A DNA stretch of 55,009 bases, taken from positions 1 to 55,009 of IMG/VR virus record IMGVR_UViG_3300050010_000073. One strand, 5' to 3'. Shown here one piece after another: positions 17,879 through 36,890 of this stretch (within the stretch, counting starts at the first letter, position 1; each line of letters begins with the position of its first letter). The DNA comes from a virus. Taxonomy: Duplodnaviria; Caudoviricetes. Position numbers and translations under genes: made by a program. The notes under the pieces were generated by a model. That model was not told the origin of the DNA. It saw only the letters and a program-made list of their open reading frames with translations, and did not search any database.

Positions 17879-17894
17879 AGCAACTTTCATGCCA
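17879..17894 (-). promoter_or_regulatory. sigma54 promoter (-24/-12) for the capsid gene
   Basis: TGGCAT-GAAAG-TTGCT on the minus strand, intergenic, ~135 nt upstream of the MCP start. Confidence 0.85.
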
Positions 17895-17903
17895 TGAGGT
17901 CTA

Positions 17904-19265
17904 CTACTGCTGTTTAGCTTGCTCAAAAGCATCCATAGTTACTTCTCCATTGGTTGTAGTGGTAGCAGGGATACTACCTGTGGTAGCTAGAGGACTTTGT
18001 ATTTGTGTAGCAGCTGCTTGCTGAGGCCGGCCTTCCAGTTCAGCTACTCTACGTTGAAGGTGTTGTATGAGTGCATAGCTCTTACCAAGCCAGGGAGCAA
18101 ACACATTATTACGTTGAGATGGTGGTAGTTGCTGTACGATGCCATCTATAACAGGCTTGAAAGCTTGGGCAGTAGGATTACCCTCCTTGAACCAAGGAAA
18201 GTAATGATCCTCAGCTTGTCTAATAGCCTGTATATCACTAACTATTCTCACTTGATAATTCTGTCGGAATTGGGCTTCTACTTGCTGAACCTGTGTAGAA
18301 TACTGATTGGCCTTAATGAGGTTGTTCTGTATCCAAGCTTGGGTATTAGCATCGGCCGGCAATTCCTGTCCTTCAAAGTACTGCCCCCTATCATCCCTAA
18401 TAAGCTGCTTAGGTTTTCTACCTGCCAACAACTCTCCCAATTGTTTCTGCCAATGAGAAGCTTCTGTAGAATAATTATTAGTTTGCTGCACTATCTGTGC
18501 ATACTCGGGAGTGAGAGCATAACCAAGAGGATTGATAGCAGCCACAGGATCAGTTGCTGCTGACTTTTGCTGCTGAAGCTGATCCTGCAACAGTTTGGCT
18601 TCTTGTCGGGTAGTCTCTACTTGTTGCTTCAATTGTTTAGACTCTCTATATATGGGTGCAAGATACCTAAAAGAGTCATTAGACATATCCCTAAACATCT
18701 TTCGCTCTTCTGGTGTAAAGCCCTGCATGTCTCTACCGTTCTCCAATTCTGGGACATGAGAAACAGATGGAGTAGTCGGCTGAGTAGAAGGAGTAGTTGC
18801 AGCAGGTACAGGAGCTGGCTGCCCCGGAGATCGAAAAAGTGGACTATCTTCCAGCTTTATGTCTACAGTCAAAGGCTTACCATCCTTATCCACTCCCGAT
18901 GGTATAGAAGTAGGAGGAGTTACCGAAGCAACAGGAGGAGTGACTGGCACTGTACTAGCCGGAGTGGGAGCTGGTGCAGCAGTACTAGTAGTACTACCAG
19001 GTAAAGTTGGAGTTGTTTGACCAGCTTTAGCACTATCTGATAAATCTCTGGTAGATTCAAACTGAGAGAAATCAGGTAGAAAGTCTCCAGCCGGCCCTCC
19101 CTCCACTGGTATAGTAGATGGTGCAGGAGTAGTAGCTGGACTAGCTGGAGCCGACAATGAACTCAGCACTACACTAGGTAAAGGTGCAGACTGGGTGAGA
19201 GCGGCTGGAGGGGCGGCTGTAACTGGAGGCAGAGGAGCAGGAGTAGTTGTAGTAGCTTCGGGCAT
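17904..19265 (-). CDS. Capsid scaffolding protein
   Basis: P/T-rich disordered N-half and coiled-coil C-half; lies between portal and MCP. Confidence 0.65.
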   Translation of the reverse strand: MPEATTTTPAPLPPVTAAPPAALTQSAPLPSVVLSSLSAPASPATTPAPSTIPVEGGPAGDFLPDFSQFESTRDLSDSAKAGQTTPTLPGSTTSTAAPAPTPASTVPVTPPVASVTPPTSIPSGVDKDGKPLTVDIKLEDSPLFRSPGQPAPVPAATTPSTQPTTPSVSHVPELENGRDMQGFTPEERKMFRDMSNDSFRYLAPIYRESKQLKQQVETTRQEAKLLQDQLQQQKSAATDPVAAINPLGYALTPEYAQIVQQTNNYSTEASHWQKQLGELLAGRKPKQLIRDDRGQYFEGQELPADANTQAWIQNNLIKANQYSTQVQQVEAQFRQNYQVRIVSDIQAIRQAEDHYFPWFKEGNPTAQAFKPVIDGIVQQLPPSQRNNVFAPWLGKSYALIQHLQRRVAELEGRPQQAAATQIQSPLATTGSIPATTTTNGEVTMDAFEQAKQQ

Positions 19266-19266
19266 A

Positions 19267-19575
19267 TTAAATCTTTCCTTTGTAGAGATGGTTAAGAACT
19301 TGTTTGAAAGCTGCGCGATGTGCTAACATAACTCTTAAAGCATCATCAGCTGATGTAGCAGCACTTCTATCGAGACTATCATTTATAGCTTCAATGTGAG
19401 TAATAACATCAACTATTAACTCCTTGGTCTGTGGCATTTCTAGCCAGATCTTGTATTGGCCTTCTTTCTCTTGTCGGGCCAACTCTATCTGTTCTGGAGT
19501 TAGACCTGGTGTTTGACTCTTATCAGTTTTTAACTGACTCTGTATTGTGTTGTCTATCAGTTCTGTAGTACTCAT
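19267..19575 (-). CDS. Hypothetical protein (small helical protein after the portal gene)
   Basis: 102-aa ORF tightly packed in the operon. Confidence 0.6.
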   Translation of the reverse strand: MSTTELIDNTIQSQLKTDKSQTPGLTPEQIELARQEKEGQYKIWLEMPQTKELIVDVITHIEAINDSLDRSAATSADDALRVMLAHRAAFKQVLNHLYKGKI

Positions 19576-21677
19576 TGCATCTGTAGTGCTTTCTGTTGTT
19601 GAGGTTGACCCCCTTGTTGAGGAGGCTTCTGTTGCTGTTGTGGCTGTTGACCAGCTTGTTTATTATCCTGTGCTTGGGCTTGTTGACTAGGATTAATAAC
19701 TTGTTGAGCAGCTTGAATGATCTGCTGCAAAGTTTGTTTATCTTGTGGAGATATATTAGGATCAGTCTGCTCTAAGTGTTGTAGCATCTGGGCCATAGTA
19801 GCTATCAACTTAGTTTCGTCTTGTTGCTGATCCAATATCTGTATCCATCTGTTGGCTTGATTAGGATAAGCCTGTCTTATGAATTCCTTCATGAATTCCA
19901 TAGCTATAGGAGTAGCTTGAAGAACAGGCCAATCCCCTCGCATCTGCTGTAGCATCTTCTGCCGTTCGACTACATCAACACTACCAGCCGGCTTTAGCAT
20001 GTAGTGTTGTTGTATCATCTGAGTATTATTGACATAGCTTGGTACAGATCCACCATCAAGTGTTAGTGTGGGTTGACCAGGAACTTGAAGTAGGTTGATG
20101 AGACCTTGTAGAGCTTGAGACTGAATGATTAACCATTTGAAGTTGCCTTCAAGAGTTAAGAATATAGACAATAAGCTAACTTGAACAGTTGAGAGCTGCT
20201 GTTGGGTTTGCTCGGACGATGTAATCTCTTTGGCCGTCTTCCTGCTATCAACCCTATCATTAGCTGCATAAGAGATCTGACCAGCATCCTCTGAGTTCTT
20301 TGTTCCAAAGTATTCGAGGGCTTGGATACATTGAGGATCAGGTTGGGGGGTAGTAAAGAATTTGATCTCCCTATCATAGAGAGCGCCATTATTAAGTGGA
20401 GTGTTTAACTGCTTAGGCTCGGCCGTAGATGAGGGATCTCCAGCTACAGAGCCATAAACATTGGAGGCACGAGTAAGAGTATTACAGAATCCCGTAGCTA
20501 TAGAGGTTTGAGCTTCCTGCATATACTTATCCAAGAAACCTCGACCTATTGCCATTATGATGGGCTGCTCTTCAGTGATGAGATAGATGTTAAGGAAAAT
20601 GGGATAATCTACTATATCTATGTCTTGCCACTCCATAGTAGGAACCTGTGTCATCTGTATAGAAGGGGGAGTAACAATGGTTTTACCAGGTATCGTGGGG
20701 TGAGGGCTAATCTGTGCTGGTACTTGTTGTGGCACTTGTTTCATTACTTGAACCTGCTTCTTGATTCCCAGCTTGAGCTTCTCTGGCATCTTGAGCCAAT
20801 TATCACAGAACTCTAGAGAGCACCAAGCAACATAGACTACTTTCTGCCACTTGAAGAAGACTTTATAGAGTATGAAGTTCTGATCGGCTCTATCAACTCC
20901 CTTAATAGTATCAAGAGCTATCTGAACTTGATGAGGATCAAAGCCAAAGTCTTTAATCCAAGATCTCAATTGCATTGCCGAAATTGAGTATCTACGCATT
21001 AGGATCTCACAAGAGTTAAGGTCGAGGGCGTCTACTGAGAAGAATAGGTTCTCATGTCCTATATGTTCTGAATCTACATGTAAGGGTTTAGATGGATCAA
21101 ACACTACCTCTGTAGCATCCCATCCATGCAGTTGAGCACCATCAAATACTTTGAAATAGGGTCTCTCCCATCCTGGATACCTGAGACCGGCTGTAACATC
21201 CTTCTCCAAATTCTGTATAGTCTGACTATCTACAGCTGGATTAGCCAGAGGATCAAAAATGTATTGACGGGCTGGAGACACTAGATAATTAACATATGCA
21301 GGATTCTCTCTCCTTATGTTGGTATCAATGACTCTCATTGGCACTATAGTCTCATCGGGCTTTAGCCGTCCTGACTCCCTTAGTCCACGAGGAGACAGAT
21401 CTACTTTCCTATAGAGTCTCCTTTCTATAGTAGCATTGACTTCTGCGTTCCAGAAACCCTTGAGCTTCATCAATCTAATCTTGGCTTGATCCCATACAAA
21501 GAGTCCTTTCCTGACTTCTTCCTGCTCATCCTGTTGCCTTTTAGCCTCTCCCTCTAAAGGTGCTGTCAACTCGACCGGCGGGGTTTGGGGTTGCATGGAC
21601 TGGCTATCTGCCTGCATTTGTTGAGCAGGAGTAGCTACTTGTTCTGGATAATCATTAAAAGATGTTTGTGAAGCCAT
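19572..21677 (-). CDS. Portal protein
   Basis: ~700 aa after TerL, with a Q-rich C-terminal barrel and a KTAKEI motif; likely start MASQ at 21677. Confidence 0.75.
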   Translation of the reverse strand: MASQTSFNDYPEQVATPAQQMQADSQSMQPQTPPVELTAPLEGEAKRQQDEQEEVRKGLFVWDQAKIRLMKLKGFWNAEVNATIERRLYRKVDLSPRGLRESGRLKPDETIVPMRVIDTNIRRENPAYVNYLVSPARQYIFDPLANPAVDSQTIQNLEKDVTAGLRYPGWERPYFKVFDGAQLHGWDATEVVFDPSKPLHVDSEHIGHENLFFSVDALDLNSCEILMRRYSISAMQLRSWIKDFGFDPHQVQIALDTIKGVDRADQNFILYKVFFKWQKVVYVAWCSLEFCDNWLKMPEKLKLGIKKQVQVMKQVPQQVPAQISPHPTIPGKTIVTPPSIQMTQVPTMEWQDIDIVDYPIFLNIYLITEEQPIIMAIGRGFLDKYMQEAQTSIATGFCNTLTRASNVYGSVAGDPSSTAEPKQLNTPLNNGALYDREIKFFTTPQPDPQCIQALEYFGTKNSEDAGQISYAANDRVDSRKTAKEITSSEQTQQQLSTVQVSLLSIFLTLEGNFKWLIIQSQALQGLINLLQVPGQPTLTLDGGSVPSYVNNTQMIQQHYMLKPAGSVDVVERQKMLQQMRGDWPVLQATPIAMEFMKEFIRQAYPNQANRWIQILDQQQDETKLIATMAQMLQHLEQTDPNISPQDKQTLQQIIQAAQQVINPSQQAQAQDNKQAGQQPQQQQKPPQQGGQPQQQKALQMQ

Positions 21678-21684
21678 AAGATTA

Positions 21685-21915
21685 TTACATTGTATGTTCT
21701 GGATTGTGATGCTTGAGATCAAAGTCTATTCTACCTTCTTCTGCTGCCCTCTTACCCTCCTCTAAGAATGTGCTACTGCCGCCCACTACTAAGGGCATCT
21801 CAGACATAGTCTTAACGGACTTGGTGCCATCCTGATGATAGGTGATGCGTAGAGTACCCCTAGTCTTATTGAAGGTAGAATAGGGCAAGGACTTGATGTA
21901 GGGAGCTTGATTCAT
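21685..21915 (-). CDS. Hypothetical protein
   Basis: 76-aa ORF filling the TerL-portal gap. Confidence 0.6.
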   Translation of the reverse strand: MNQAPYIKSLPYSTFNKTRGTLRITYHQDGTKSVKTMSEMPLVVGGSSTFLEEGKRAAEEGRIDFDLKHHNPEHTM

Positions 21916-21917
21916 AT

Positions 21918-23696
21918 TCAGTTCCTCTGACTATCTAGGGCAGACATTAGAGAGCCATAGATTAGCTTGTTGGTGTTCACTGACGGCCCAGATGGTATAG
22001 CATGGGGATCTAAGTTCTTATTGTACATGAGGGCCATCTGTTCGGGATCATCTTCCAATACTAGTTCGGGATGTTGTTGCTTTAAGATATCTCTTATGTT
22101 AGCAAAGTGTTTGAGAGCCATCTCTTCTTGAACATCGAACCTTTTGCTGTCCATATCTTTCACTAGTTGTTCTAGGGATACTACTTTCTCTTTGTTGGAA
22201 GTATCATCTAGGACTTTCTTATCAGCATTGAGTAGTTGATCTACTCTGTAGTCTGAGAGGGCTAGTATGTCAGCATCTGCTCTATCAGGACTAGGAAAGC
22301 CTTCTGCTTTAGCTTCTTTCTTAGACTGTAAGAAGATCCTATTGTTTCCGCCCTCCGTCTGTTTGTAGTGTCTAGCTACTAACTGATCCTTTGTTTTTGG
22401 ATCCATCTTACCATCTAAAGCATCTTCTCCCCACAACAGTAAGCACTCTTCTACCAATCTTTTGACATTATACCACATCTCAGCTCCCTTATTGCCATAA
22501 GCTCTCTTATCAAAAGCTGGTGTTTGATTCATTATACGACGAATGTTCCAGCCCATCTTCCTTAGATTGTCTATAATACCCCTACCTACTCCACCATCAT
22601 CTGCCTTAATATGGGTTGAATCTTTATCTATCCCCTGAGCTTTCAACTCTCTGGATATGAGGTCGGCCGTAACTGTAGTATCCTTTTCTATGAAAGCATA
22701 CCTATAAACTCTCTTGTTGCCCTGCCAAATGGATATAACACATTCATCTCCCCCCGCTGCTAGATCTATTCCTACTTCTTTGGGCCACTTCTCACCTATG
22801 CGTATCTTACAGAGTTCTAAACATTTAGTTAGAGCATCTTCTGTTATGACTACCTGCCCTCCTATCGATGTAAAGAGGGCTTCATGCTTCGACCTGTAGT
22901 ATGCCGAATTGATCCCATACTTCTCTGCATCGACTGCCCTATCCTCTTCTGATAGATGTGGACAATCTTTGGATGTGACCCTAAAGATGTTGGGCCAGTG
23001 ATTAAAAGCCCAATAAAAATCTCCTTTAGGTTCTCCGGGACTAGAGACCATGAGATAGTGGGTGTAACCAGTACACCTCCCAAGCGCACTGAAAATATCG
23101 TCTTTGACACTTTTACATTCATTGGCTATTAGGACTAGTTTGGCTCCTGGCTCTATAGGATGATAACCTTCTGCCCGGCCGGCCTCATCAGTAGCAAAAA
23201 GTATAATCTCTGAACCTGTTAGTAGACACTTGATATTCCTCTGATTGATCTTAAAGATCTTATTGTTCCAGAACTTATTTATCTTTTCGCAGAGGTTTCT
23301 GATGTATCTTTCTGTTTGAGTTGTAAGTTGAGGTCCAGAAGAAGAAGTAATAACAACAGTACATTTGATGTTGCTGACAGCCATAAATACGGCGAAGGGA
23401 GCCACAATGAAGGAGTCTTTACCACTACCATTAGCGGCACACAAAACGAACTTAAGGGGATGCTTATCACTAGCAGGTAAGCAACAAATAGCTTTATTAA
23501 CTTTGATTTGCCAGTTGTGAAATCGGACTGTTCCTTCTGAGAGTTGTTTATCATAAAAAGCTAACATGTCTGCACTATCTTTATGGATAGTAAGAGCCTG
23601 TAACTCACTGTCCTTTAAGCCCACTTCTTCATCGGCTATGAAGGGGAGGTCGGCTAAGCCTTGTCCGCCTACTGCATCTGGAGTTTTTGAGAGCAT
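21918..23696 (-). CDS. terL: Terminase large subunit
   Basis: Walker A AANGSGKD, EGYH, SSPG; nuclease motifs GIDLAAGGD, DDGGVG and SPDRADA. Confidence 0.9.
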   Translation of the reverse strand: MLSKTPDAVGGQGLADLPFIADEEVGLKDSELQALTIHKDSADMLAFYDKQLSEGTVRFHNWQIKVNKAICCLPASDKHPLKFVLCAANGSGKDSFIVAPFAVFMAVSNIKCTVVITSSSGPQLTTQTERYIRNLCEKINKFWNNKIFKINQRNIKCLLTGSEIILFATDEAGRAEGYHPIEPGAKLVLIANECKSVKDDIFSALGRCTGYTHYLMVSSPGEPKGDFYWAFNHWPNIFRVTSKDCPHLSEEDRAVDAEKYGINSAYYRSKHEALFTSIGGQVVITEDALTKCLELCKIRIGEKWPKEVGIDLAAGGDECVISIWQGNKRVYRYAFIEKDTTVTADLISRELKAQGIDKDSTHIKADDGGVGRGIIDNLRKMGWNIRRIMNQTPAFDKRAYGNKGAEMWYNVKRLVEECLLLWGEDALDGKMDPKTKDQLVARHYKQTEGGNNRIFLQSKKEAKAEGFPSPDRADADILALSDYRVDQLLNADKKVLDDTSNKEKVVSLEQLVKDMDSKRFDVQEEMALKHFANIRDILKQQHPELVLEDDPEQMALMYNKNLDPHAIPSGPSVNTNKLIYGSLMSALDSQRN

Positions 23697-23718
23697 TACT
23701 TAATTCCTTCCCATCGGA

Positions 23719-23831
23719 GCAGTAGATAGTAGTGGTTCAAAGCTTAGGGCGCGGGACTTAGTACAATATAACCACGTTATTAGCTGTGATGAACCTTTCT
23801 CCAGAGAAGGAAAGAAACTACTATCTACTGC
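23719..23831 (-). ncRNA. Structured RNA element upstream of terL
   Basis: Perfect 15-bp inverted repeat (23719-23733/23817-23831) enclosing further hairpins. Confidence 0.45.
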
Positions 23832-23869
23832 CCTTCTTCCATTAGCTACCCACCTCGGCATCTACCAAA

Positions 23870-24106
23870 TTATTTCTTAGGAGCACGATGTTCAGGAGTT
23901 ACAACATCATCAATATGGAGACACTCTGCAAGGTTCAGGTATGGGTCTAATGTTCGATTGATAACTGCTAACCTACCGTTACAACAGTCATTGCCTGCTA
24001 TAACATTATAAAGGATACCAATTTGTGGGATTGGATTTGCCGAAAAGTCCGGGATTAAAATTACCACATCTCCATTATGAGCTTCTCTACCATTTTTATA
24101 GTGCAT
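23870..24106 (-). CDS. Hypothetical protein
   Basis: 78-aa ORF in the late operon. Confidence 0.65.
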   Translation of the reverse strand: MHYKNGREAHNGDVVILIPDFSANPIPQIGILYNVIAGNDCCNGRLAVINRTLDPYLNLAECLHIDDVVTPEHRAPKK

Positions 24107-24108
24107 AA

Positions 24109-24594
24109 TTATACCTCTATCATTTCTTTTTGGGTTTGGGGTTGTGAGGGCTGCCCAGTCTCCAACTGAGTAGCTCTCCTAGCTTTATCGAGTTGTTGCT
24201 GAACTAGAACAATATTGAAATTAGTTCGACCAATCTGTGTTAGTCTCTTAGACTTTCTTTCTTCCTGATTCAGACGAACGACGGCTTTAGCACATGAAGC
24301 CTGCACCAATTCTAGCTCTGCACCTTTGGCTAGACGCACTAGGACTTCTCTGCAAGCCTTCTCATCCTCTTCTGGAAATAGAGGATATTCTTCTTGGCCG
24401 CCCTCCCCTCCTTGTATGTGCTGTAGAGAGGTTCCATTAGCTTGCTTACGAGCTTCGGCCGAAAACTGAGAGCTATTCTGCATTAGAGACATTCTAATGG
24501 CTTCTGTGGCCCAGCCGGTCTCCTTAGAGATGCTATCAGGAGACATCCCTAGAGTCTCATACATTTCTAAGATTGTGCGGTCGGCGGCGAGCAT
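24109..24594 (-). CDS. Putative terminase small subunit
   Basis: N-terminal HTH-like segment (LGMSPDSISKETGW); first gene of the late operon, upstream of terL. Confidence 0.5.
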   Translation of the reverse strand: MLAADRTILEMYETLGMSPDSISKETGWATEAIRMSLMQNSSQFSAEARKQANGTSLQHIQGGEGGQEEYPLFPEEDEKACREVLVRLAKGAELELVQASCAKAVVRLNQEERKSKRLTQIGRTNFNIVLVQQQLDKARRATQLETGQPSQPQTQKEMIEV

Positions 24595-24770
24595 GTCTTA
24601 GTTATGTTAGGGGTTGTATAGAAAGCAATTTGACTGGCAGGAGATTGTATGTGTAAGTTTATTGTTTCTCTACTAAACTCCTGTTGTATTTTTTGCATTT
24701 GTTCAGATAGTAGTATTGTATGTTGAGTCTCAATTACTTCTATAAGTTCTTCTTGCATACCCTCCCTGAA

Positions 24771-24786
24771 AGCAACTCTCATGCCA
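24771..24786 (-). promoter_or_regulatory. sigma54 promoter for the late operon
   Basis: TGGCAT-GAGAG-TTGCT on the minus strand, upstream of the terS-like gene. Confidence 0.85.
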
Positions 24787-24938
24787 CCCTCCCTGTATGT
24801 GCTATTCCTCCCTCCTTCTTCTACTTCTTCCTGCCTCCTACAGCTAATCTTTAGTATTTGTGCTTTGGAAATCGAATTAAGGAAATTTGTGTGAGAGTGT
24901 CAGTTGTGAAAGCACCGCATGACTCTGGGTCCCTACCT

Positions 24939-25659
24939 GTCAATACTAGCTATTCTTAGGTGTCAAGTATAGCTTATAGTTGATTAGATAGGAGTCAAGT
25001 ATATGGTGGAAGTGTCAAGCATACAACCGGCTGTGTCAACTACATACAGCTAGTGTCAAGCATACACATTCTAGTATTGACAGACGGGCTGTATGCTTTA
25101 CAGTAAGGAGTCAACTATACAGTAAGGAGTCAAGCACACAGTCTGTCAATACTAGTTCGCTCCTTACAAGAATTTGCTTGACTACTCTAGTCAATACTAG
25201 GTCGTTGATACCCTGCCATATACTTGACAGAGCCTGAAACACCCCTTAGTTTCTCGGAGGGTGGTAGTGATACCTTGTGATACCTTGTAATATAATGTAT
25301 TATAGTATATGAGTCTCTTCTCTCTATAGACAGCTAATTTACCATACCCCCCCCAGTAACACCCAAGGTATCACGGAGGTAGTTTTATAGTATTGACGGG
25401 GCTAGATAGGAGTCAAGCCTAGAAAGTAAGATAGTATTGACTAGGCTAGTCAATACTAGAAGGCCAGAAAGCTAGTCAATACTAGCAAAAAAAGTCATAA
25501 GTCATTGACTATCAACGGGTTACGCACAAATGAGACACTTCCCTTAGTTCCTTAGGTCTCGTCCCTTTCCATATACATAAACCCTTGTCACTACAACATT
25601 TCCCCGCCGTCCCATAGTTGCGACTCTACGCTTGACATTGGCGGTAGTGTATACTTGAC
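24939..25659. repeat. Dense array of GTCAA/TTGAC motifs (frequent extended form GTCAATACTA)
   Basis: 21 copies counted by eye in ~720 bp, several spaced 20-21 bp apart. Confidence 0.85.
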
Positions 25660-25693
25660 TAGTCATAAGTCATTGCCTAGCAAGGAGTTACGC
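25493..25693. promoter_or_regulatory. Two 33-bp direct repeats containing IHF-consensus-like sites
   Basis: 25493-25525 and 25661-25693 are 29/33 identical; TATCAACGGGTTA (25510-25522) matches WATCAANNNNTTR. Confidence 0.6.
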
Positions 25694-25707
25694 TTCTCAT
25701 AAATGAG

Positions 25708-25723
25708 TGGCACAAGGGTTGCT
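25708..25723 (+). promoter_or_regulatory. sigma54 promoter for the early region
   Basis: TGGCAC-AAGGG-TTGCT, exact consensus, intergenic. Confidence 0.85.
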
Positions 25724-25880
25724 CTATATGTGGCAGTTCTTTCACACAACCGGGAGCGCGGGCAAGGGTGGTCAGAGCTAGGCTAGACGTTCTACACGCT
25801 AGACCTCAGTGAGACGGTAAATAGGCTACCAAAGACCTATCAAGTCAGCGAGTATATGGGACTACGCGAATAGACGCGAC

Positions 25881-26303
25881 AAGACGGCTCTAATGGGGTG
25901 GCTTGCAATACAAAACAAAAAGGCAAGTCAATGAATCAAATCAATCCCAAATCAGTTATGTCCCGGCTTACTCTCGAACACCATGATGCTGGTAGTCATT
26001 ATGATTACATCACCAAAGCTTATGAGGATCTGCCGGAACATTTCAAAGGTAGTGCAGTATTCGTGGTGAGCGGCCAGTCGTCAGAGAGCACTGTTGAAGT
26101 GCGGCTCTCACCTGAAATCAGTGTCAAAATCGTTGCCCTAATTGCAGATGAGATGGCGAAAGCCTGTCAGGCTGCAGTGGAGCAAAACAGGAACTTGATG
26201 CTCCAAAGCATCATGGCTTGCACAAAGCCACAACTCAACGCCCCTTCCTCCACACCACAATCCTAGTTAATCCCATTGTAAGCCATTCCATTAGAGCCGT
26301 CTT
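25881..26303 (+). repeat. Long-range RNA stem 1 (25881-25909/26275-26303) enclosing a CDS
   Basis: 29 bp with 3 G-U and no other mismatch. Confidence 0.9.
25931..26266 (+). CDS. Early hypothetical protein
   Basis: ATG at 25931; lies entirely inside stem 1. Confidence 0.7.
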   Translation: MNQINPKSVMSRLTLEHHDAGSHYDYITKAYEDLPEHFKGSAVFVVSGQSSESTVEVRLSPEISVKIVALIADEMAKACQAAVEQNRNLMLQSIMACTKPQLNAPSSTPQS

Positions 26304-26308
26304 AAAAC

Positions 26309-27109: not shown

Positions 27110-27115
27110 AAGAAA

Positions 27116-28879: not shown

Positions 28880-28933
28880 GCAGTCCAAATTAAATTGGAC
28901 ATAAGTCAAACCTATAAAAGAAAGAATTAAATT

Positions 28934-29599
28934 ATGATTGGATACAAACTAACAGATCAAAACATGCGAACTCGCAACAACGTTCAATGGAAACTTGGAA
29001 TTGAACGAACAGTTAGAGGTTCATTTAAAAAACAGCAACTTTGCACACCTTATTGGTTACATTTTTATGTTGAACCACGATTAGCTATAATAATGAATCC
29101 TATAGGAGCAAATTTTAAGTCACCTCGTTTGTTTAAGTGTAATGTAGGTGGTAAAATTCAACACGAGAACAAAGGAAGACTAAAATCTGGTTGCACCAAA
29201 CTAACTTTAATTGAAGAATTAACTTTACCAGTTATTTCAAATAACCAGAAGGTTGCTTTTGGTATTTTAAGCAGCCTAAAAGTGTGTAGGGATCCTGATT
29301 TTGTTTTTTGGGCAAATAATTGGATAAATAACATAGATCGAAGTTATACTACTAATGCTGCTGCTTATACTGCTGCTTCTCATGCTACTTATGCTGATGC
29401 TGCTGCTACTGCTTCTGCTTATGCTGCTGCTGCTTATGCTGCTTATGATGCTCATGCTGCTCATGCTGATGCTGCTGATGCTGCTCATGCTGCTCATGCT
29501 GCTGCTGCTTTTTATGCTACTTATGCTACTACCACTGGTAGCTCTTTTAACCACAAAGATATATTAATCCTGTTAGACCAAGCATTAAAAATAACATAA
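28934..29599 (+). CDS. Hypothetical protein with Ala/Tyr/Asp/His low-complexity tract
   Basis: GYKLTD...WLHFY domain plus a GCT-rich repeat at ~29350-29530. Confidence 0.75.
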   Translation: MIGYKLTDQNMRTRNNVQWKLGIERTVRGSFKKQQLCTPYWLHFYVEPRLAIIMNPIGANFKSPRLFKCNVGGKIQHENKGRLKSGCTKLTLIEELTLPVISNNQKVAFGILSSLKVCRDPDFVFWANNWINNIDRSYTTNAAAYTAASHATYADAAATASAYAAAAYAAYDAHAAHADAADAAHAAHAAAAFYATYATTTGSSFNHKDILILLDQALKIT

Positions 29600-29603
29600 T
29601 ACT

Positions 29604-29975
29604 ATGAGCTTCCTCCTAGATTTCCATAAAGTCATTTGGGCTAAACTCTACTATAAGAATCAAGAAGGTTCTAAAACACCACACCTTTCTTCTTCTCCAA
29701 CAGTCCACGGAGAGTTTATTGTAAATCCTGATGAAGATGCTCTTCCACGTGATTTAGCCTACCCTGGTGAGACTCGGCTAGAAAGAGCTAGGCGTTTAGA
29801 TCTCTTAGATGTATGGATTCCCCGATGTGAAATGCTCATCTATTGCCGGGAATTAATAGTCTGGGAAAGGCAAAGAGCCCTAGATATGTATAAGGCTTAT
29901 TGTATTTTCCTGATGTCCAACAACAAAAACAAAAGAAAGACTACAAAAAATGAAAAGAAGAGCAAAAGTACCTGA
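29604..29975 (+). CDS. Hypothetical protein
   Basis: 123-aa ORF in the operon. Confidence 0.65.
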   Translation: MSFLLDFHKVIWAKLYYKNQEGSKTPHLSSSPTVHGEFIVNPDEDALPRDLAYPGETRLERARRLDLLDVWIPRCEMLIYCRELIVWERQRALDMYKAYCIFLMSNNKNKRKTTKNEKKSKST

Positions 29976-30165
29976 AGGTTATAGAAGGTTGAGAGTTGGA
30001 GAAATAATACGGGAAGGTGATTATAGTTGGGATAAAAGTGCACCAACAGTTATAATTGGTCATATAGCACTTTATGGCCTTAGTGGACTTAAGGTTGAAA
30101 AAGAAGATAGTAACTTCTATTATAGACTCAAACAAACAAACAAACAAATAGGGCTTACAGCATAA
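29950..30165 (+). CDS. Hypothetical protein
   Basis: 71 aa with a PEGYRRLRVGE.I.EGD motif seen in small phage proteins. Confidence 0.6.
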   Translation: MKRRAKVPEGYRRLRVGEIIREGDYSWDKSAPTVIIGHIALYGLSGLKVEKEDSNFYYRLKQTNKQIGLTA

Positions 30166-30175
30166 GTAGATTGGG

Positions 30176-30191
30176 TGGCATAGAACTTGCT
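30176..30191 (+). promoter_or_regulatory. sigma54 promoter for the helicase/ligase/bEBP operon
   Basis: TGGCAT-AGAAC-TTGCT, intergenic. Confidence 0.85.
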
Positions 30192-30346
30192 TATGTCCTA
30201 TTGTTCTGTCTGACAAATGCAAATACTCCACGAATCCGTCTTTAATTTCTATCTATAGCTCAAGAGTTGTCGCTATAGATAGGAAGGGTTAGCTAACCCT
30301 CACAAACCCACTGAACAACTCATCACTCGGTTACATAAATAAAAGT

Positions 30347-31060
30347 ATGCCAACAGACAAATTGGTAGTTCAAACTTCTGCTCAGTCTAATCCTGATATG
30401 CAGAAGCTCATCACAGATGCAGTCGCAATCACGATCAATGTCAAAGAAGGAAAAGACGTCAAAACTCTTAGTCCTATTACTGCCGTTGTTCGCAATGGTG
30501 TTGCCTTGCCCCTCTTCTATACTGATATGGAACGGGCTAAGGGCGATAAAGCTGGAGTTGCTTATCTGGCTCCTCATCCCCAATGGATCAAAGACAATAC
30601 GCCTACCTTCCTGACATGGTTGGGCGATGTTATTATTCGTAGGTGGTGTGGCAGCAAGATCAAGAACGTCCTTCAGGGTCTTAATGAAGAGGCTTGTGCT
30701 GATCTGGTTGTGGATGGAGTTGTTCAACTCTATCCCAATAAGAACCCGAAGATCAAAGAGCCGAAGCCTGATTATCAACAGTTTGACATTCAAGAGTATG
30801 TTGATCTGGTGGAAGAGTTGTCTCCACGTTCAGAGACTGTTGCAGAGATCAACGAACAGTTGAAGTCATTGGCCAATGAATTGGCTGACTTGAACGATGA
30901 AGACTTTAAGACTATTGAAGAGTTCCGTGCTGCCAAGCTCGTTCTCAAGAACCAGATCAAGTCCTATATTCTGGCCCTTGATAAGAAGAAACGGCATAAG
31001 GCTGAAACTCTTACTGAAGGTGAAGAGGATACTACTCCTGCCACTCAGAAAGCTATCTAA
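30347..31060 (+). CDS. Hypothetical protein with coiled coil and acidic tail
   Basis: 237 aa; first gene after a sigma54 promoter. Confidence 0.8.
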   Translation: MPTDKLVVQTSAQSNPDMQKLITDAVAITINVKEGKDVKTLSPITAVVRNGVALPLFYTDMERAKGDKAGVAYLAPHPQWIKDNTPTFLTWLGDVIIRRWCGSKIKNVLQGLNEEACADLVVDGVVQLYPNKNPKIKEPKPDYQQFDIQEYVDLVEELSPRSETVAEINEQLKSLANELADLNDEDFKTIEEFRAAKLVLKNQIKSYILALDKKKRHKAETLTEGEEDTTPATQKAI

Positions 31061-31082
31061 TATACCCTGGTCAATTAAACAA

Positions 31083-31143
31083 CTTAGGTCGGCTCTACCT
31101 GTCTTTCGCCCTCACCGGTCACAGAAGGTATTGCCGGCCTAAG
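31083..31143 (+). other. Intergenic hairpin (processing/stability element)
   Basis: CTTAGGTCGGC/GCCGGCCTAAG, 11 bp with one G-U. Confidence 0.5.
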
Positions 31144-31168
31144 CTTTTAGACGATCTAGGCTCTAATT

Positions 31169-31588
31169 ATGAATATACCTCTAAAGCTCTTTCTACATCT
31201 AGCTGTCAACAATTTTGAAGGCTGGATAGTCCTAGATAGCCAAGCACTCATAGTAGAGTGTCAAAAAGATGATCCTCAAGAACTCCTACATCACATAGAA
31301 ACTATTACTGATGCAACCAAGCTTAGCAAGTTAAATCTTAAGGCCGGCTGGAGACTCTGGCGCAAATGGGACTGGGATCTATACCAGCATCAAGTCCAGA
31401 TAAAGTATAAGAATTGGTCAGCTAGGAAAGCAGTATGGGACAGGTATGACAGGAATATGAAGAAACTCTCCTTAGCTATAGTTAAGATGACTGGAATAGA
31501 TATGGATACAGCTAAACTTATGGCCGACAAGATCATAACAACCAGACCACACAAAGCTGCTAACTTTGACTGTGAACTAGAAAGCTAA
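31169..31588 (+). CDS. Hypothetical protein
   Basis: 139-aa ORF. Confidence 0.7.
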   Translation: MNIPLKLFLHLAVNNFEGWIVLDSQALIVECQKDDPQELLHHIETITDATKLSKLNLKAGWRLWRKWDWDLYQHQVQIKYKNWSARKAVWDRYDRNMKKLSLAIVKMTGIDMDTAKLMADKIITTRPHKAANFDCELES

Positions 31589-31594
31589 CAAAGT

Positions 31595-31930
31595 ATGAAA
31601 GAACTAGACCAAAACATGGCGATTGTGGAATTTTGTGGGTGGAAATGCCATATACCAGAAGGTGATGCAGAAGATTATGGTGATTGTGTACACTGGAAGT
31701 TGGGTCAAAACATAGTATATGTTTTGTCAGATTTACCATCCTACACTACTGACCTCAACGCGATGCACGAGGCAGAGAAGTTGCTGACCAAACAGCAGAT
31801 TGCCTCGTATCAATTCAGTCTGCGTTACGTCACTAAAGAGGGGATGGCTAGTGACTGGAACCTGATAAACGCCACCGCCGCTCAACGCGCCGAAGCTCTC
31901 TTGCGAACAATCAAAAAATGGAAGGACTAA
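31595..31930 (+). CDS. Phage protein (PxYxxDLNA family)
   Basis: LPSYTTDLNAMHEAE...ATAAQRAEA motif common in small phage proteins. Confidence 0.6.
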   Translation: MKELDQNMAIVEFCGWKCHIPEGDAEDYGDCVHWKLGQNIVYVLSDLPSYTTDLNAMHEAEKLLTKQQIASYQFSLRYVTKEGMASDWNLINATAAQRAEALLRTIKKWKD

Positions 31931-31931
31931 T

Positions 31932-34274
31932 ATGGCTACCAAGATCATCAAGCTCTCTCAGCTTTCTCCCCATGAGCAAGACAAGGAAAGACTTCTATAC
32001 CTAAGGAATAGAATCAACTCTGGATTCAATTTCGGACGGCTAAAAACTCTCTTAGATTTCCTCTATGAACTAGGTCATAGTAAAGGCGAATTGCAATATG
32101 CTTATGGAGTTGACCTAAAGACTCTACAATCCACGCCCCTAACCAAAGACTTGCTCAAGAGTCTGCTAGATACAGAGTCTTGGCAAGTTGAATCAACAGA
32201 AAGAGCTAGACAGTATGACCAAATGCACACTACCATGGTGGCAAAATTACCTGATATACCAGAGGTTACATCAGAAGCAAAAGAATCAAATGGTAATCCT
32301 TCTGTGGAAAAGAATATTCTACCCTCCTCTTGGACTCAAGCTTCCCAACACCCAAAGCAGAAAGCCAAACTGTGGAAGAAGCAAGAACTAGCTGCTGCCC
32401 AAATCTATGAGAAGATAGTCTCTGGTGGTCAAGGCATCCTATTGAATGCAGCTACAGGTGCTGGCAAGACCTTTGTTCTAGGTGCTGTTATACGTAGGCT
32501 AATAGACAATCATTGGAAACCTCTAGAAGATTGTTGCTCTCCTTGGCCTATAGTATATGTCACTAAAGCTTCTATTGTAGAGCAGTCTCGTCGTGTCCTA
32601 GAAAGATTCTTTGGCATAGATTGTAGAACAGAAGTTACAGTTATTAACATAGAGCAATTGCGTGCTACTTTCGGAGATAGATTTATAAAGTGGGAGACTC
32701 TTATAGAGAATGGTGAAGAGTTCATAAGACCTATCTGGAAACCTAATATACATCCCATACTCTTTATCTGGGATGAGTGTCACATCTTAAAGAATCTGGA
32801 TAGTCAGCAATCGCTGATAGCTCAGGATGTTAATAACATACAAGATAGGTATGATGAAAAAGTCTTCCAGATTTTCTCTTCAGCAACTGCTGGCACACGT
32901 GTTATTGAATTTAAGTGTTTTGCTGTATCTACTCATGCTAGCATTGCTGACCGTCATTCTGTTACTGGCCGAGCTGCTCTTACCAACAGAAACTGGACAG
33001 CATTTGCCAAGAACATAGCCCATCCTCAAGATCCAGAAGAGCATTCCCCGGCTGCCATAGAGAAGCTCATTACCCACCTACTAGACTATATAGTAGATAT
33101 TAAAGGCTTGCGACCTCAATTCCATCCTACTAATAGGGTAGAGATGATAGAGTTTGAGACTCCCGAAGAACAGAAGCGTTATCAAGATGCTTGGGAAGAC
33201 TACCAAAAGAAGAAGTTAGAGTTTGAGAACTCTGATCTACTTACTGAGGGCCAATCTAGGATGATGATTCTAGCCCAGTTTACTATCTTTAGAAAGATGG
33301 CCGAAGCTATTAGGGCTAGGACTATAGCCCGCAGACTACATCATATGGTTCAAGAAGGTAGTGCCTCAGTAGCAGCCTGCTGCTTCAAGGGGACTATAGC
33401 TAATGCTGTTCAAATCCTAGTAGATGACTATAATGTTCCTAGAAATAAGATCTCTATCATCTGGGGTGGACTAGGTAATGAAGCTAAGAAGGTAAAGAAG
33501 GAGGTAGTAGAGAAGATAAAGAAGCAGCAAGGCATGACAGAAGAAGAACGAGAGACCTTCATACGAGGAATGATCTTGGCCGGCTGTGACATGAAAGAGA
33601 TTGAGGAGATGATAGAGCTACAAGATGAGCTGGCTGGAGATAAGCCAGAGGTAGATAAGAAAGCAGGTGTGAGGGCGTCAGATCATGGCTTATCCAAGCA
33701 ACAGATAGATAGATATGGATTAGGTGCTCAGAGCAAGATACAGAGGCAGGGGGAGATAGATAGATTCCAGTCGGGCCAGAGCTTATACTGCTTTTTTACG
33801 TTTAAGGCTGGTGGTGTAGGTTTAAGTCTACATCATTCTGATGAACTCACCACATTCAAATGCAGAAAACATCCTAATGGAGATTGGTCAAATGAAAATG
33901 ATATATCAAAGGTGCCTACTTGTCCTCGCTTTGTTCTTCTTACGCCTGTCTATTCAGCTATTGAACTTGTGCAGGGATTGGGAAGGTGTGCCAGACTTAC
34001 CTCATTATCTGATACTCCGCAGACAGTATTATTCTACAGGGGGACGATTGAAGAGCGTGTGGCTCATACTGTATCTATCAAACTTAAGTGCCTCAAGAAA
34101 GTTGTAAGGCAGCGAGAGTCTTGGGAATCAGTGATACTTAATCCTGATAAGCTCACTGAAGAGGTAGAGGAAATACCTCAAGATCAAGTAGTCAAACCCA
34201 TACAACAAGAACAACAAGATCCCGATGACGATGTCTTCTTAGGCGGGTCATCGGATGTAGAAGAAGAGGACTAA
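31932..34274 (+). CDS. SF2 DExH helicase
   Basis: ATGAGKT, DECH, SAT, GGVGLSLH and QGLGRCAR motifs. Confidence 0.9.
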   Translation: MATKIIKLSQLSPHEQDKERLLYLRNRINSGFNFGRLKTLLDFLYELGHSKGELQYAYGVDLKTLQSTPLTKDLLKSLLDTESWQVESTERARQYDQMHTTMVAKLPDIPEVTSEAKESNGNPSVEKNILPSSWTQASQHPKQKAKLWKKQELAAAQIYEKIVSGGQGILLNAATGAGKTFVLGAVIRRLIDNHWKPLEDCCSPWPIVYVTKASIVEQSRRVLERFFGIDCRTEVTVINIEQLRATFGDRFIKWETLIENGEEFIRPIWKPNIHPILFIWDECHILKNLDSQQSLIAQDVNNIQDRYDEKVFQIFSSATAGTRVIEFKCFAVSTHASIADRHSVTGRAALTNRNWTAFAKNIAHPQDPEEHSPAAIEKLITHLLDYIVDIKGLRPQFHPTNRVEMIEFETPEEQKRYQDAWEDYQKKKLEFENSDLLTEGQSRMMILAQFTIFRKMAEAIRARTIARRLHHMVQEGSASVAACCFKGTIANAVQILVDDYNVPRNKISIIWGGLGNEAKKVKKEVVEKIKKQQGMTEEERETFIRGMILAGCDMKEIEEMIELQDELAGDKPEVDKKAGVRASDHGLSKQQIDRYGLGAQSKIQRQGEIDRFQSGQSLYCFFTFKAGGVGLSLHHSDELTTFKCRKHPNGDWSNENDISKVPTCPRFVLLTPVYSAIELVQGLGRCARLTSLSDTPQTVLFYRGTIEERVAHTVSIKLKCLKKVVRQRESWESVILNPDKLTEEVEEIPQDQVVKPIQQEQQDPDDDVFLGGSSDVEEED

Positions 34275-34280
34275 TATAAT

Positions 34281-35192
34281 ATGAATCTCCGTCCACCAAT
34301 GTTAGCACCTCACGAGTCTGTAGACTTAGAGAGTTTCAAAGACTATCCCGTCTATGTCTCTCCTAAGTATGATGGCATCAGATGTTTGATAGGAGAGGGC
34401 GGCTGGGCCTATAGCCGAACTCTTAAACCTATACCTAATCTTCATATAAGACAGACTTTAAGAGCACTCCAACTACCATTTGGTTTGGATGGTGAACTAG
34501 TATCCTACACTACAGGCAAGATGGATAAGTATAGTGAAGTTCAGTCAGCTGTCATGTCTAAGTATGGAACTCCTGCTTTCTTATATCATACTTTTGATAT
34601 ACAAACCTCCAATCCGAGTGACTGCTTCCTAGATAGGATGGCTCTTATAGAATCCATTTGTTTTAAGGCCGGCCTACCTCTTATAACCAACAGATGTTGT
34701 TCTTCACGAGCAGAAGTGGAAAATGCCGAACTAAGATTCTTGTATATAGGCTTTGAAGGTGTGATGCTTAAGTTACCTCATGGTTATTACAAGCATGGCC
34801 GATGCACCCTACTAGAGTCTACTATGTTCAAGCTCAAGAGATTCACAGACTCAGAAGCCTTAGTCTTAGGTATGGAGGAAGAGCTAGAAAATCAGAATCC
34901 CCTGGATATGGACTTTGCTGGTCATGCTAAAAGAGGACACTCACAAGAAGGGATGGTTCCTAAAGGTAGAATGGGTAAGTTGCACTGCCGAGATATACAT
35001 GATGCTGCTCTTGAAGAGTTTGATATAGGAACAGGATTCACTCATGCAGATAGAGATTGGTGGTGGCAACACAGGATGGATAAGGAAGTAATAGGTAAAG
35101 TGATGGTCAAGTATAAGTATCAAAAACACGGAACAGACAAGAGACCTAGAACACCAGTCTGTCTAGGTATAAGGAATCCACAAGACATATGA
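34281..35192 (+). CDS. ATP-dependent DNA ligase
   Basis: KYDGIR, LDGEL, FEGVMLK and KLK motifs; OB domain with GTGF. Confidence 0.92.
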   Translation: MNLRPPMLAPHESVDLESFKDYPVYVSPKYDGIRCLIGEGGWAYSRTLKPIPNLHIRQTLRALQLPFGLDGELVSYTTGKMDKYSEVQSAVMSKYGTPAFLYHTFDIQTSNPSDCFLDRMALIESICFKAGLPLITNRCCSSRAEVENAELRFLYIGFEGVMLKLPHGYYKHGRCTLLESTMFKLKRFTDSEALVLGMEEELENQNPLDMDFAGHAKRGHSQEGMVPKGRMGKLHCRDIHDAALEEFDIGTGFTHADRDWWWQHRMDKEVIGKVMVKYKYQKHGTDKRPRTPVCLGIRNPQDI

Positions 35193-35446
35193 GTTATAAA
35201 CCCAAAACACACTTAAGCTATCAAGCAGCCCAGAAAGCTTGGAGTAGGAGACTTTGTTTATATGAAGATGCAGTAGAAGCACTCTCTTGGAGAGGATCAA
35301 GACGGCCAGATGAACAAGATAGCATTATCAATCGTTACAAACTTCTTCGTCGTCATCTCAAGAAAGCTCTTACCGAGCTCTTGAAGTATCGCTATGGTTA
35401 TGTTCCTCATAAGCCGTGGCACGGAAAAACAAACAGTGGTAGTTAA
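35189..35446 (+). CDS. Hypothetical basic protein
   Basis: 85-aa ORF overlapping the ligase stop codon. Confidence 0.6.
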   Translation: MSYKPKTHLSYQAAQKAWSRRLCLYEDAVEALSWRGSRRPDEQDSIINRYKLLRRHLKKALTELLKYRYGYVPHKPWHGKTNSGS

Positions 35447-35461
35447 ATCTCAATATAACAT

Positions 35462-36346
35462 ATGAGTTCATATATACAAGCACCATCAGCAGGAGGCCAA
35501 TCACCTGGTAGTGATATATCAAAGCAGAAATGGGTAGAAGCTATTCAAGATCTCCTAGATGTAGGAGCAACAGACCAAGCTAAGAGGATTGATAAAGAGC
35601 ACAACGTGGGCTTCTTCTCTAAAACTACAAAAGCTCTAAGATATTTAGACAAGTTCATTACTTGTAATCTCCAGATGCTCAAGCTTAAAGAACAAGTCTT
35701 AAGACTAGCTGATCCTACAATTACCGATCCTGTTCTTATTCTAGGAGAAACTGGCACAGGTAAAGAGTTACTGGCTCATGCTCTTCATGCTGACAAAATA
35801 GGTAACTTTGTAGAGATCAATTGTGCTGGACTGCCCGAGCATCTAATAGAATCAGAACTCTTTGGTTATGTAGATGGTGCTTATACAGGAGCTAAGAAAG
35901 GAGGTCAAGCCGGACTCATAGAGTTAGCTGGACAGGATAGCAAAGGCAACCAAGCTAGAGGTTCCCTGTTCTTAGATGAGATAGGTGAACTTCCCTTACA
36001 GGTTCAAGCCAAACTATTAAGAGTCTTGAATGATGGCAGAGTACGGAAGGTCGGCGGAAGCACATATGAATGGGTAGACTTCCGTCTTATATGTGCCACA
36101 CACCAGAGTATAGATGCACCAGACTATAAGCATTTCCGCAGAGATTTGTATCATCGTATCTCTCTTATAGAGCTTAGAACTCTTCCTCTCATACAGAGAA
36201 AAGAAGACATCAAGCCTATCATAGAGAGTTTGCAGATAGGTGCCCATGATAAGCTGTTCGATAGATACATAAAAGATAATACTTTGGGTGGCAATGTCAG
36301 GGACTTGCAGAAACTAGTTAGAAGATTACAATTAGAACTATTATGA
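35462..36346 (+). CDS. sigma54-interaction (bEBP) AAA+ transcriptional activator lacking a DNA-binding HTH
   Basis: GETGTGKE, INCA, ESELFG, GAYTGA, LFLDEIG, QAKLLRVL, FRRDLYHR and GNVRDL; the protein ends ~12 aa after sensor II. Confidence 0.95.
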   Translation: MSSYIQAPSAGGQSPGSDISKQKWVEAIQDLLDVGATDQAKRIDKEHNVGFFSKTTKALRYLDKFITCNLQMLKLKEQVLRLADPTITDPVLILGETGTGKELLAHALHADKIGNFVEINCAGLPEHLIESELFGYVDGAYTGAKKGGQAGLIELAGQDSKGNQARGSLFLDEIGELPLQVQAKLLRVLNDGRVRKVGGSTYEWVDFRLICATHQSIDAPDYKHFRRDLYHRISLIELRTLPLIQRKEDIKPIIESLQIGAHDKLFDRYIKDNTLGGNVRDLQKLVRRLQLELL

Positions 36347-36645
36347 AACTTCTCACCATCCAAGATATAGCAACCTCTGTTCCTTTGTCCTACTCCTATG
36401 TAGTCCTACTTAATGATCTGGCCCGACAGTTCGTTATAGCCGAATACATGATGGGAGTACAACTGGGAACTCTAGCTCCCAATAAAGCTATCAACCTAGA
36501 GCAGCTCCAAGCCGAAGCTATGGAGATAGATGATAGAATAAAGAAGTGTCCTTACTTAAGGGATGCTCTTAAATCTATGTTAGGTCAGTCTACATTTGAT
36601 CTAAGGATAGTTGAACCACCACCAACAGAAGAGAGTAAGAACTAA
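36343..36645 (+). CDS. Hypothetical protein
   Basis: 100 aa; start overlaps the bEBP stop codon (ATGA). Confidence 0.7.
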   Translation: MKLLTIQDIATSVPLSYSYVVLLNDLARQFVIAEYMMGVQLGTLAPNKAINLEQLQAEAMEIDDRIKKCPYLRDALKSMLGQSTFDLRIVEPPPTEESKN

Positions 36646-36861
36646 ATGAAACTAAAAATAACAATTGAAGGTACACCTGGAACAGGTAAAATATTATTAG
36701 CACAAAGGATTCGTGACATGATTATTAAATCTCCATTTGAGATTAGATCTGTAGCTATTATAGACAGATCTTTTATAGGTACCAATTATTGTGCAGTAAA
36801 GAAAGACGCAATGGTATGTGACTGTGTAATAAAAGTAGTAACCAAGCAACCCAAATTGTAA
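36646..36861 (+). CDS. Small protein with P-loop-like motif
   Basis: ITIEGTPGTGKI in a 71-aa ORF. Confidence 0.55.
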   Translation: MKLKITIEGTPGTGKILLAQRIRDMIIKSPFEIRSVAIIDRSFIGTNYCAVKKDAMVCDCVIKVVTKQPKL

Positions 36862-36874
36862 TAGAGTAAGCCCT

Positions 36875-36890
36875 TGGCACACTTTATGCT
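36875..36890 (+). promoter_or_regulatory. sigma54 promoter for the replication operon
   Basis: TGGCAC-ACTTT-ATGCT; GG/GC conserved with correct spacing, intergenic. Confidence 0.75.

Follow-up and report, generated by a model that had tools for sequence, protein, structure and literature searches.

A sigma-54 activator gene and a conserved set of candidate -24/-12 promoters in the genome of an uncultured tailed phage

The IMG/VR record IMGVR_UViG_3300050010_000073, analysed over its whole length of 55,009 bases (the window), is a complete viral genome with a 127-bp direct terminal repeat and 54,882 bp of unique sequence, and its source is an uncultured tailed phage. The genes lie in a minus-strand block and a plus-strand block that diverge from a non-coding control region (Table 1). 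Eight sites with the -24/-12 promoter pattern of sigma-54 (an alternative sigma factor) are distributed over the two blocks, and the plus-strand block includes a gene (35462-36346) for an AAA+ protein of the sigma-54 activator type, or bacterial enhancer-binding protein (bEBP). The RNA polymerase holoenzyme that contains sigma-54 (E-sigma54) binds -24/-12 promoters as a closed complex, the opening of which needs a hexameric AAA+ activator with GAFTGA loops that engage sigma-54. In most of these activators a C-terminal helix-turn-helix (HTH) holds the protein at an upstream enhancer, and those without an HTH work from solution.

The pattern TGGCAYN5WTGCT was matched eight times on the two strands of the window, compared with 0.11 +/- 0.31 matches expected (a 70-fold enrichment; none of 100 shuffled sequences reached eight), and the GG and GC doublets keep the fixed register of TGGCAC-N5-TTGC at all eight exact sites. 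The looser pattern TGGC-N8-TGC was barely enriched (11 matches, 6.25 expected; 4 of 100 shuffles reached 11), and therefore the signal resides in the full consensus. The sequences flanking the eight sites show no mutual relatedness, so the sites are not copies of a longer repeat. An earlier reading of this DNA from its letters alone (the sequence-only reading) had named six of the sites as correctly oriented promoters at the heads of transcription units; all six are present, together with two more on the minus strand (8902-8887 and 4193-4178), and all eight are co-oriented with the local strand block (P = 0.004). The enrichment in intergenic, co-oriented positions that it had proposed to check was also found, six of the eight sites being located in the 7.8% of the genome that is non-coding (binomial P = 5e-6; the percentage was computed after removal of six small open reading frames (ORFs) antiparallel to the block orientation). 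The two additional sites are intragenic, as judged from the coding potential (codon bias) of the ORF frame, which continues on either side of them. The site at 30176-30191 is the nearest same-strand site 5' of the helicase, ligase and activator genes.

By its domain content, the product of 35462-36346 is a bona fide sigma-54 activator, as the sequence-only reading had proposed. It matches PF00158 over residues 70-238 with a score of 164.6 bits (gathering cut-off 20.2; E 2.2e-48) and has the Walker A motif GETGTGKE, the L1 loop GAYTGA, the Walker B motif FLDEIG, the arginine-finger block FRRDLYHRI and the sensor II motif GNVRDL. In phmmer comparisons, residues 76-290 align to the AAA+ core of FleQ (E 1e-36), and residues from 64-72 to about 257 align to NtrC1 and PspF (E 1e-34 to 1e-32). 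An AlphaFold model built from 54 homologues (mean pLDDT 91.9) found its best Foldseek matches in the central domains of bEBPs, namely FleQ (6jdi; E 1e-21), NtrC4, NtrC1, FlrC, LuxO and PspF. Residues G95, G98, G100, K101, E102, D172 and E173 are invariant in the 54 family members, and so are R226, R232, N278 and R280 of the arginine fingers and sensor II, which in the alignment correspond to FleQ's blocks FRxDLYYRL and GNVREL; a loop of the form G[AS][FY][TS][GD][AS] is present in 51 of the 54, of which 26 have exactly GAFTGA. The protein is also matched by PHROG 7998 (E 3e-32), a family labelled 'unknown function'.

What the sequence-only reading overlooked is that the activator has no DNA-binding domain, which shifts the predicted mechanism to enhancer-independent activation from solution. 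Its C terminus follows 17 amino acids (aa) after the start of the NVR motif of sensor II (16-32 aa in the family), neither HTH_8 nor any other DNA-binding Pfam domain was found in the protein, and residues 1-69 have no Pfam match to a sensor domain (REC, GAF, PAS or V4R). Because there is no HTH and the C terminus comes so soon after sensor II, the protein is placed in the enhancer-independent subgroup typified by FlgR and CtcC. The N-terminal extension of about 65 aa forms four short helices in the model, at pLDDT of about 90. No 8-mer that could represent an enhancer (upstream activator sequence) is common to more than three of the eight regions upstream of the sites, as expected of an enhancer-independent activator.

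Related viruses were examined for the same combination of genes and sites. The closest homologues of the activator are short proteins of 270-307 aa, many of them encoded on contigs of 48-55 kb. A single-sequence search for relatives in viral contigs returned none; a profile of 20 homologues, searched against IMG/VR, returned 181, of which the best 80 loci (1,255,172 bases) were kept. The pattern TGGCAY-Nn-WTGC occurs 115 times in these loci at n = 5, compared with 14, 3, 7, 8, 16, 14 and 9 times at n = 2, 3, 4, 6, 7, 8 and 9, so that the co-occurrence of motif and bEBP, another check proposed by the sequence-only reading, is borne out. At the positions that the pattern leaves free, 106 unique sites of the 80 loci (window excluded) favour T preceding TGG (62%), G (60%) or A (30%) following TGGCAY and T following TTGC (87%), preferences that match the extended sigma-54 consensus. 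Five near-complete relatives, syntenic with the window at 25-50% protein identity, have 6, 5, 4, 4 and 5 strict sites and no match to the reversed pattern; 21 of these 24 sites are co-oriented with the genes around them (strand blocks judged by eye).

The positions of the sites are conserved as well. A site is located 135-150 nucleotides (nt) 5' of the capsid gene in all six whole genomes, and 41 of 51 capsid loci (fetched separately, with one partial locus of 52 left out) have a same-strand site within 450 nt upstream of that gene, compared with 1-3 loci for other spacers and 0-1 for the opposite strand. Just 3' of the activator gene, each of the six whole genomes has a site, and so do 50 of those 69 loci, among the 80, that include 1.2 kb of sequence 3' of the gene. 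The opposite strand has a site in 3, and the counts for other spacers are 1-3 (same strand) and 1-4 (opposite strand). At the divergent junction, sites head the structural block and the opposite block in each of the six genomes. Beyond this group, tblastn of the activator against a phage collection matched 65 phage records, with identities of 33-43%; many of the records listed seem to be bacterial DNA that was deposited under a phage label. The gut metagenomic phage MT121960.1 carries an AAA+ gene 34% identical to the activator and no -24/-12 site within 3 kb of it; thus, the pairing of activator and promoter is not universal. Megablast of positions 17000-37000 against GenBank phages gave no match. 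The proposal that the phage has its own activator together with -24/-12 promoters heading its gene blocks is strongly supported by these comparisons, in which the activator and the motif co-occur across the clade at conserved positions in viral genomes of about 50 kb.

Very probably, then, the phage redirects the sigma-54 holoenzyme of its host to its own genes by means of its own activator and promoters. Host E-sigma54 would bind the -24/-12 promoters of the structural block, the capsid gene, the replication block and the small-ORF block as closed complexes, and the phage activator would assemble and open them from solution at any -24/-12 site, without enhancers, so that its concentration alone would act as the timer of firing. 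The circuit would probably be self-reinforcing, since the activator gene is located 3' of same-strand -24/-12 sites and would feed its own expression. The site at 30176, with 5.3 kb and no convincing terminator between it and the activator gene, is the candidate feedback promoter; terminator-like sites were not clearly enriched (9 against 4.7 expected, and 15 against 11.8). A same-strand strict site 4-10 kb 5' of the activator gene is also present in 25 of 28 relatives that were hand-picked from the 80 loci for low G+C and about 10 kb of upstream sequence. The positive feedback postulated by the sequence-only reading is therefore plausible. That a site so regularly follows the activator gene suggests that a transcription unit ends with this gene and that the following unit, of replication genes, is strictly activator-dependent. 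No sigma-54 DNA-binding or core-binding domain (DBD, CBD) and no sigma-70 region 2 or 4 was found in six-frame searches of the genome, as the sequence-only reading had it; nor was a T7-type RNA polymerase found, a weak negative because the polymerase model was also silent in 14/14 control genomes.

Table 1. Coordinates of the principal features of the window
Feature	Position	Strand	Context or evidence
Minus-strand gene block	~24782 down to 869, then into giant gene spanning record ends	-	
Plus-strand gene block	25898-48927	+	
Sigma-54 activator (bEBP), 294 aa	35462-36346	+	PF00158
-24/-12 site	36875-36890	+	529 nt 3' of activator gene; heads replication block (exonuclease, Sak4-like, split DNA polymerase, primase)
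-24/-12 site	30176-30191	+	156 nt 5' of ORF 30347-31060
-24/-12 site	27735-27750	+	Within small-ORF region of plus-strand block
-24/-12 site	25708-25723	+	Head of plus-strand block, right edge of divergent control region
-24/-12 site	24771-24786	-	Head of structural block (small ORFs, then terminase)
-24/-12 site	17879-17894	-	135 nt 5' of major capsid gene
-24/-12 site, intragenic	8887-8902	-	Inside ORF 8464-9228, 433 nt 5' of ORF 7192-8454
-24/-12 site, intragenic	4178-4193	-	Inside ORF 2747-4357
Divergent non-coding control region, 921 bp	24787-25707	.	TTGAC-core repeats
Predicted capsid mRNA leader, ~124 nt	17745-17868	-	Conserved covarying structured module
Major capsid protein, HK97 fold	16389-17744	-	Structure model
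Terminase	21918-23696	-	Pfam/PHROGs/folds
Giant ORF, 2,272 aa	48924-55009 + 1-860, across terminal repeat	-	

The divergent control region is a candidate location of activator-independent early promoters and/or operators. Its TTGAC-core repeats scarcely occur elsewhere in the genome: GTCAATACTAG is present in eight copies, in both orientations, compared with 1.2 expected and none outside the region, and copies of GTCAAGYATA are also found there. The equivalent region of the relatives is filled with repeats of the GTCAAG/GTCAAC type, some of which are palindromic (GTCAAG...CTTGAC). These repeats may be -35 boxes of early promoters, operators, both, or an origin.

Directly 3' of the capsid promoter, the window and relatives L099-L122 share a predicted leader of about 110-170 nt with a structured module, in which a 4-bp helix pairs the 5' flank (TGAC/TGCY) with the loop of the next hairpin (GTCA/RGCA). 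This helix is paired in 91% of cases, with compensatory changes at 4/4 pairs, a result reached by none of 500 shuffles (slid controls 16-55%). A second stem of at least 4 bp follows right after the loop in 14 of 17 sequences, with quite different letters; in this case the control is closer, shuffled sequences giving 3.6 bp compared with 4.4 bp. Together the two stems would form an H-type pseudoknot, and the module seems to be present twice. It has no match in Rfam. Control of translation and stability of the mRNA of the most abundant late protein are possibilities for its role. At the head of the structural block there is scarcely room for a leader: the ATG at 24758 is 2 nt past the predicted +1 of the site, and the corresponding ATG is at the predicted +1 in one relative (G004) and at +3 in another (G003), which suggests that the first late mRNAs of this block are leaderless or nearly so.

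The model of the capsid protein (pLDDT 74.5) has the N4 capsid as its top fold match (9e99_A; E 6e-11), and its nearest solved folds are the capsids of N4-like podophages (N4, Moo19 and DEV), not those of siphophages. The capsid and most other structural proteins belong to no sequence-level family in Pfam or PHROGs; the capsid has at least 416 homologues at E <= 1e-10, and the 120 of these that were listed are all named 'hypothetical protein'. Genes of replication type recognised by Pfam, PHROGs or folds encode a helicase, an ATP-dependent ligase, a PD-(D/E)XK exonuclease, a Sak4-like protein and a DUF3987 primase-helicase. The family A DNA polymerase is encoded in two pieces, one (42682-44244, plus strand) for the exonuclease/N-terminal part and the other (46326-47471, plus strand) for the C-terminal part, with four genes between them, including those of thymidylate synthase (44608-45285) and a MazG-like pyrophosphatase (45287-45949), an arrangement common to 5/5 near-complete relatives. 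The plus-strand ORF 28122-28391 (89 aa), 372 nt 3' of the site at 27735, matches only the C-terminal 60 or so residues of L-alanyl-D-glutamate peptidase families (phrog_2307; E 6e-8), and may be a short lysis-related protein or have a mis-called start. Neither tRNA genes nor Rfam families were found in the window.

The giant gene adjoins the structural block. The only domain recognised in its product is ART-PolyVal, at residues 950-1147 of the 2005-aa ORF 48924-54941; LPD39 is an Atlas lead only, found in 28% of one cluster. Among the relatives, conservation is limited to the C-terminal ~700-1000 aa of the protein. It is probably an injected polyvalent protein.

A profile of the capsid was searched against 185,579 species genomes and matched only a 49.9-kb 'Deltaproteobacteria' contig and a 4.6-kb 'Terracidiphilus' contig of metagenome-assembled genomes, both of which are probably binned phage DNA. 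Parts of 16300-26200 were found in nine RNA-library runs. For four runs (X1-X4, labelled peat or permafrost and covering four studies), the contigs were compared with 17001-37000, and many pieces are letter-identical; therefore, the phage or a near-twin was present in those libraries, whose origin points to cold, acidic soil as its habitat. The metatranscriptome data are assembled contigs, from which no starts, strand or expression ranking are readable. A contig of run X3 ends near the capsid promoter, at 17852, and contigs of X1 and X2 continue through this promoter. The lack of contig cover of 25005-25671 in the four RNA runs carries no weight either way.

Several of the results weigh against the circuit proposed above. 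A scan of the window with one mismatch allowed gave 9 matches at spacer 5 but 8 at spacer 8; it is noisy genome-wide, and therefore weight is given only to strict matches and to position-restricted tests with their own controls. Three of the 24 strict sites in the five relatives oppose the local genes, 10 of the 51 capsid loci have no site upstream of the capsid gene, and 19 of the 69 loci have none 3' of the activator gene, although most of these 19 exceed 0.5 in G+C and may be parts of other elements. The N-terminal extension of the activator could make it regulated and not constitutive. A circuit in which every promoter 5' of the activator gene is activator-dependent cannot start itself. 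The first activator molecules cannot come from such promoters, an activator-independent entry point must therefore exist, and the proposal of the sequence-only reading that the whole programme runs on RpoN cannot hold in its literal sense. The first activator might be supplied from a sigma-70-type promoter, by a host bEBP acting weakly from solution, as packaged protein, or through a hidden phage polymerase; scans for sigma-70-type promoters showed no enrichment (18 compared with 14.3 expected; 40 compared with 44), and some 2,000 of the 2,272 residues in the giant protein are unannotated, which leaves room for a cryptic early RNA polymerase.

It is unlikely that such a polymerase, for example within the giant protein, drives the early genes including the activator and leaves only middle and late genes to sigma-54. 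In its fold the capsid comes nearest to those of N4-like podophages, phages that inject a virion RNA polymerase of giant size (PMC4496689), and the giant gene, mostly unannotated, is next to the structural block; its product, however, has no sequence match at E <= 1 among solved structures, and PHROGs, Pfam and Atlas yield only ADP-ribosyltransferase and polyvalent-protein leads. A polymerase of this kind would in any case modify the sigma-54 circuit without replacing it. The activator could instead serve mainly to switch on the sigma-54 regulon of the host, in metabolic or stress reprogramming, with the phage motifs secondary. A bEBP that lacks a DNA-binding domain is inherently promiscuous and would induce host genes regardless of any benefit to the phage; DctD250, according to PMC3844500, turns on the whole sigma-54 regulon of Salmonella. 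Such a role is quite unlikely to be the principal one, because it leaves unexplained both the 70-fold enrichment of -24/-12 sites in the window and the maintenance of their positions across protein divergence (25-50%).

The sites could also be real sigma-54 promoters that are fired by host bEBPs; the phage protein would in that case be a decoy or an anti-activator, by which the rings of host bEBPs are poisoned or sigma-54 is sequestered. Pseudomonas phage YuA has rpoN-dependent promoters (PMC10914365) and no bEBP gene, so a phage can make do with host activators or with another route; yet a decoy is expected to lose its catalytic residues, whereas Walker A, the DE of Walker B, the GAFTGA-type loop, the arginine fingers and sensor II are all kept family-wide, and most host bEBPs need nearby enhancers, none of which is common upstream of the phage sites. 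This explanation is considered very unlikely. There is hardly any likelihood that the resemblance to promoters is incidental, the motif being bound by a phage-specific factor, or non-productively by E-sigma54 as a roadblock, sink, or packaging or replication signal. Two of the eight sites are indeed intragenic, and binding of sigma-54 inside genes, with a function that is unclear, is common among enterobacteria (PMC3844500), but the exact 10-bp register from GG to GC, the extended consensus at the free positions and the strict co-orientation all favour promoters, as do the location of sites 90-370 nt 5' of ORFs and their linkage to the bEBP gene.

The redirection of host E-sigma54 by the phage's own activator thus remains the preferred reading. 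In its wider form, which is judged likely with somewhat less assurance, a large, wholly uncultured family of ~50-kb phages with N4-like capsids, comprising hundreds of genomes, uses the enhancer-dependent sigma-54 pathway as its master timer through an AAA+ activator that is minimal, self-amplifying and independent of enhancers, and that would be the first bEBP encoded by a virus and furnished with a regulon of its own. Phages are known to take over transcription with RNA polymerases of their own, with their own factors of the sigma-70 family, or with small proteins that retarget sigma-70. Sigma-54 is an ideal all-or-none switch, because its holoenzyme is silent until an ATPase opens the complex. 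If the proposal is true, the phage, by supplying the ATPase and having the promoters in its own DNA, would possess a built-in timer with almost no leak. Next to the RNA polymerases and sigma factors of phages and to sigma-70 appropriators, this would rank as a fourth strategy, and it would bind these phages to rpoN-positive hosts. Confirmation would also give a role to PHROG 7998, provide synthetic biology with a natural, compact, enhancer-free activator and its promoter set, and make temporal classes predictable in hundreds of uncultured phage genomes from soil, peat and freshwater. Loss of rpoN would then be predicted as a route to resistance, and the sigma-54 regulon of the host would be switched on as a side effect of infection.

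Among the closest known systems is YuA (Yuavirus). PMC10914365 states, with a citation of Ceyssens et al. 2008, that YuA has promoters dependent on host sigma-54, and that ONT-cappable-seq re-identified only one sigma-54-like promoter. The likeness lies in phage promoters that use host sigma-54; YuA differs in having no bEBP gene, its best PF00158 match (11.7 bits, from a P-loop) being under the 20.2-bit cut-off, whereas the present phage encodes an activator itself and has sites at the heads of most of its gene blocks. There are no Pseudomonas phages among the 65 phage records that match the activator. Htm (Gp204) of the T4-like Mosigvirus AV110 is bEBP-like, but it lacks the GAFTGA loop, has DD in Walker B and is proposed to act on host genes, with no phage sigma-54 promoters reported; the present activator, in contrast, has GAYTGA, DE in Walker B and a matching set of promoters. 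HrpS of Pseudomonas syringae, which has retained a C-terminal HTH and acts together with HrpR at a single enhancer-dependent promoter, resembles the phage protein in being a small bEBP without an N-terminal sensor domain and in its loop, and differs in being cellular. Its natural GAYTGA loop is active (PMC3105312).

Natural activators that have no DNA-binding domain and act free of enhancers are FlgR of Helicobacter pylori (PMC9696931) and CtcC of Chlamydia (PMC7482065). Like them, the phage protein is a sigma-54 activator of the AAA+ type with its C terminus shortly behind the ATPase core; unlike it, they are cellular and have an N-terminal receiver domain under the control of a kinase, in place of which the phage protein has its helical extension of ~65 aa without a Pfam match. 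DctD250, which consists of the AAA+ domain only, is described as constitutive and promiscuous, acting from solution on intergenic and intragenic sigma-54 sites about 10-fold more weakly than enhancer-bound activators (PMC3844500). DctD250 and PspF(1-275) share with the phage activator the use of the central domain alone, and AAA+ structures of PspF are among its best fold matches; these two are laboratory truncations, whereas in the phage family the same design seems to be natural and conserved. Searches of open-access full texts yielded no account of a phage-encoded bEBP of the GAFTGA type paired with phage sigma-54 promoters, and within that literature the novelty claimed by the sequence-only reading stands. 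Each of the parts is of a textbook kind. What appears to be new is that a virus would have captured them for a timing circuit of its own, one that is conserved throughout a large uncultured clade.

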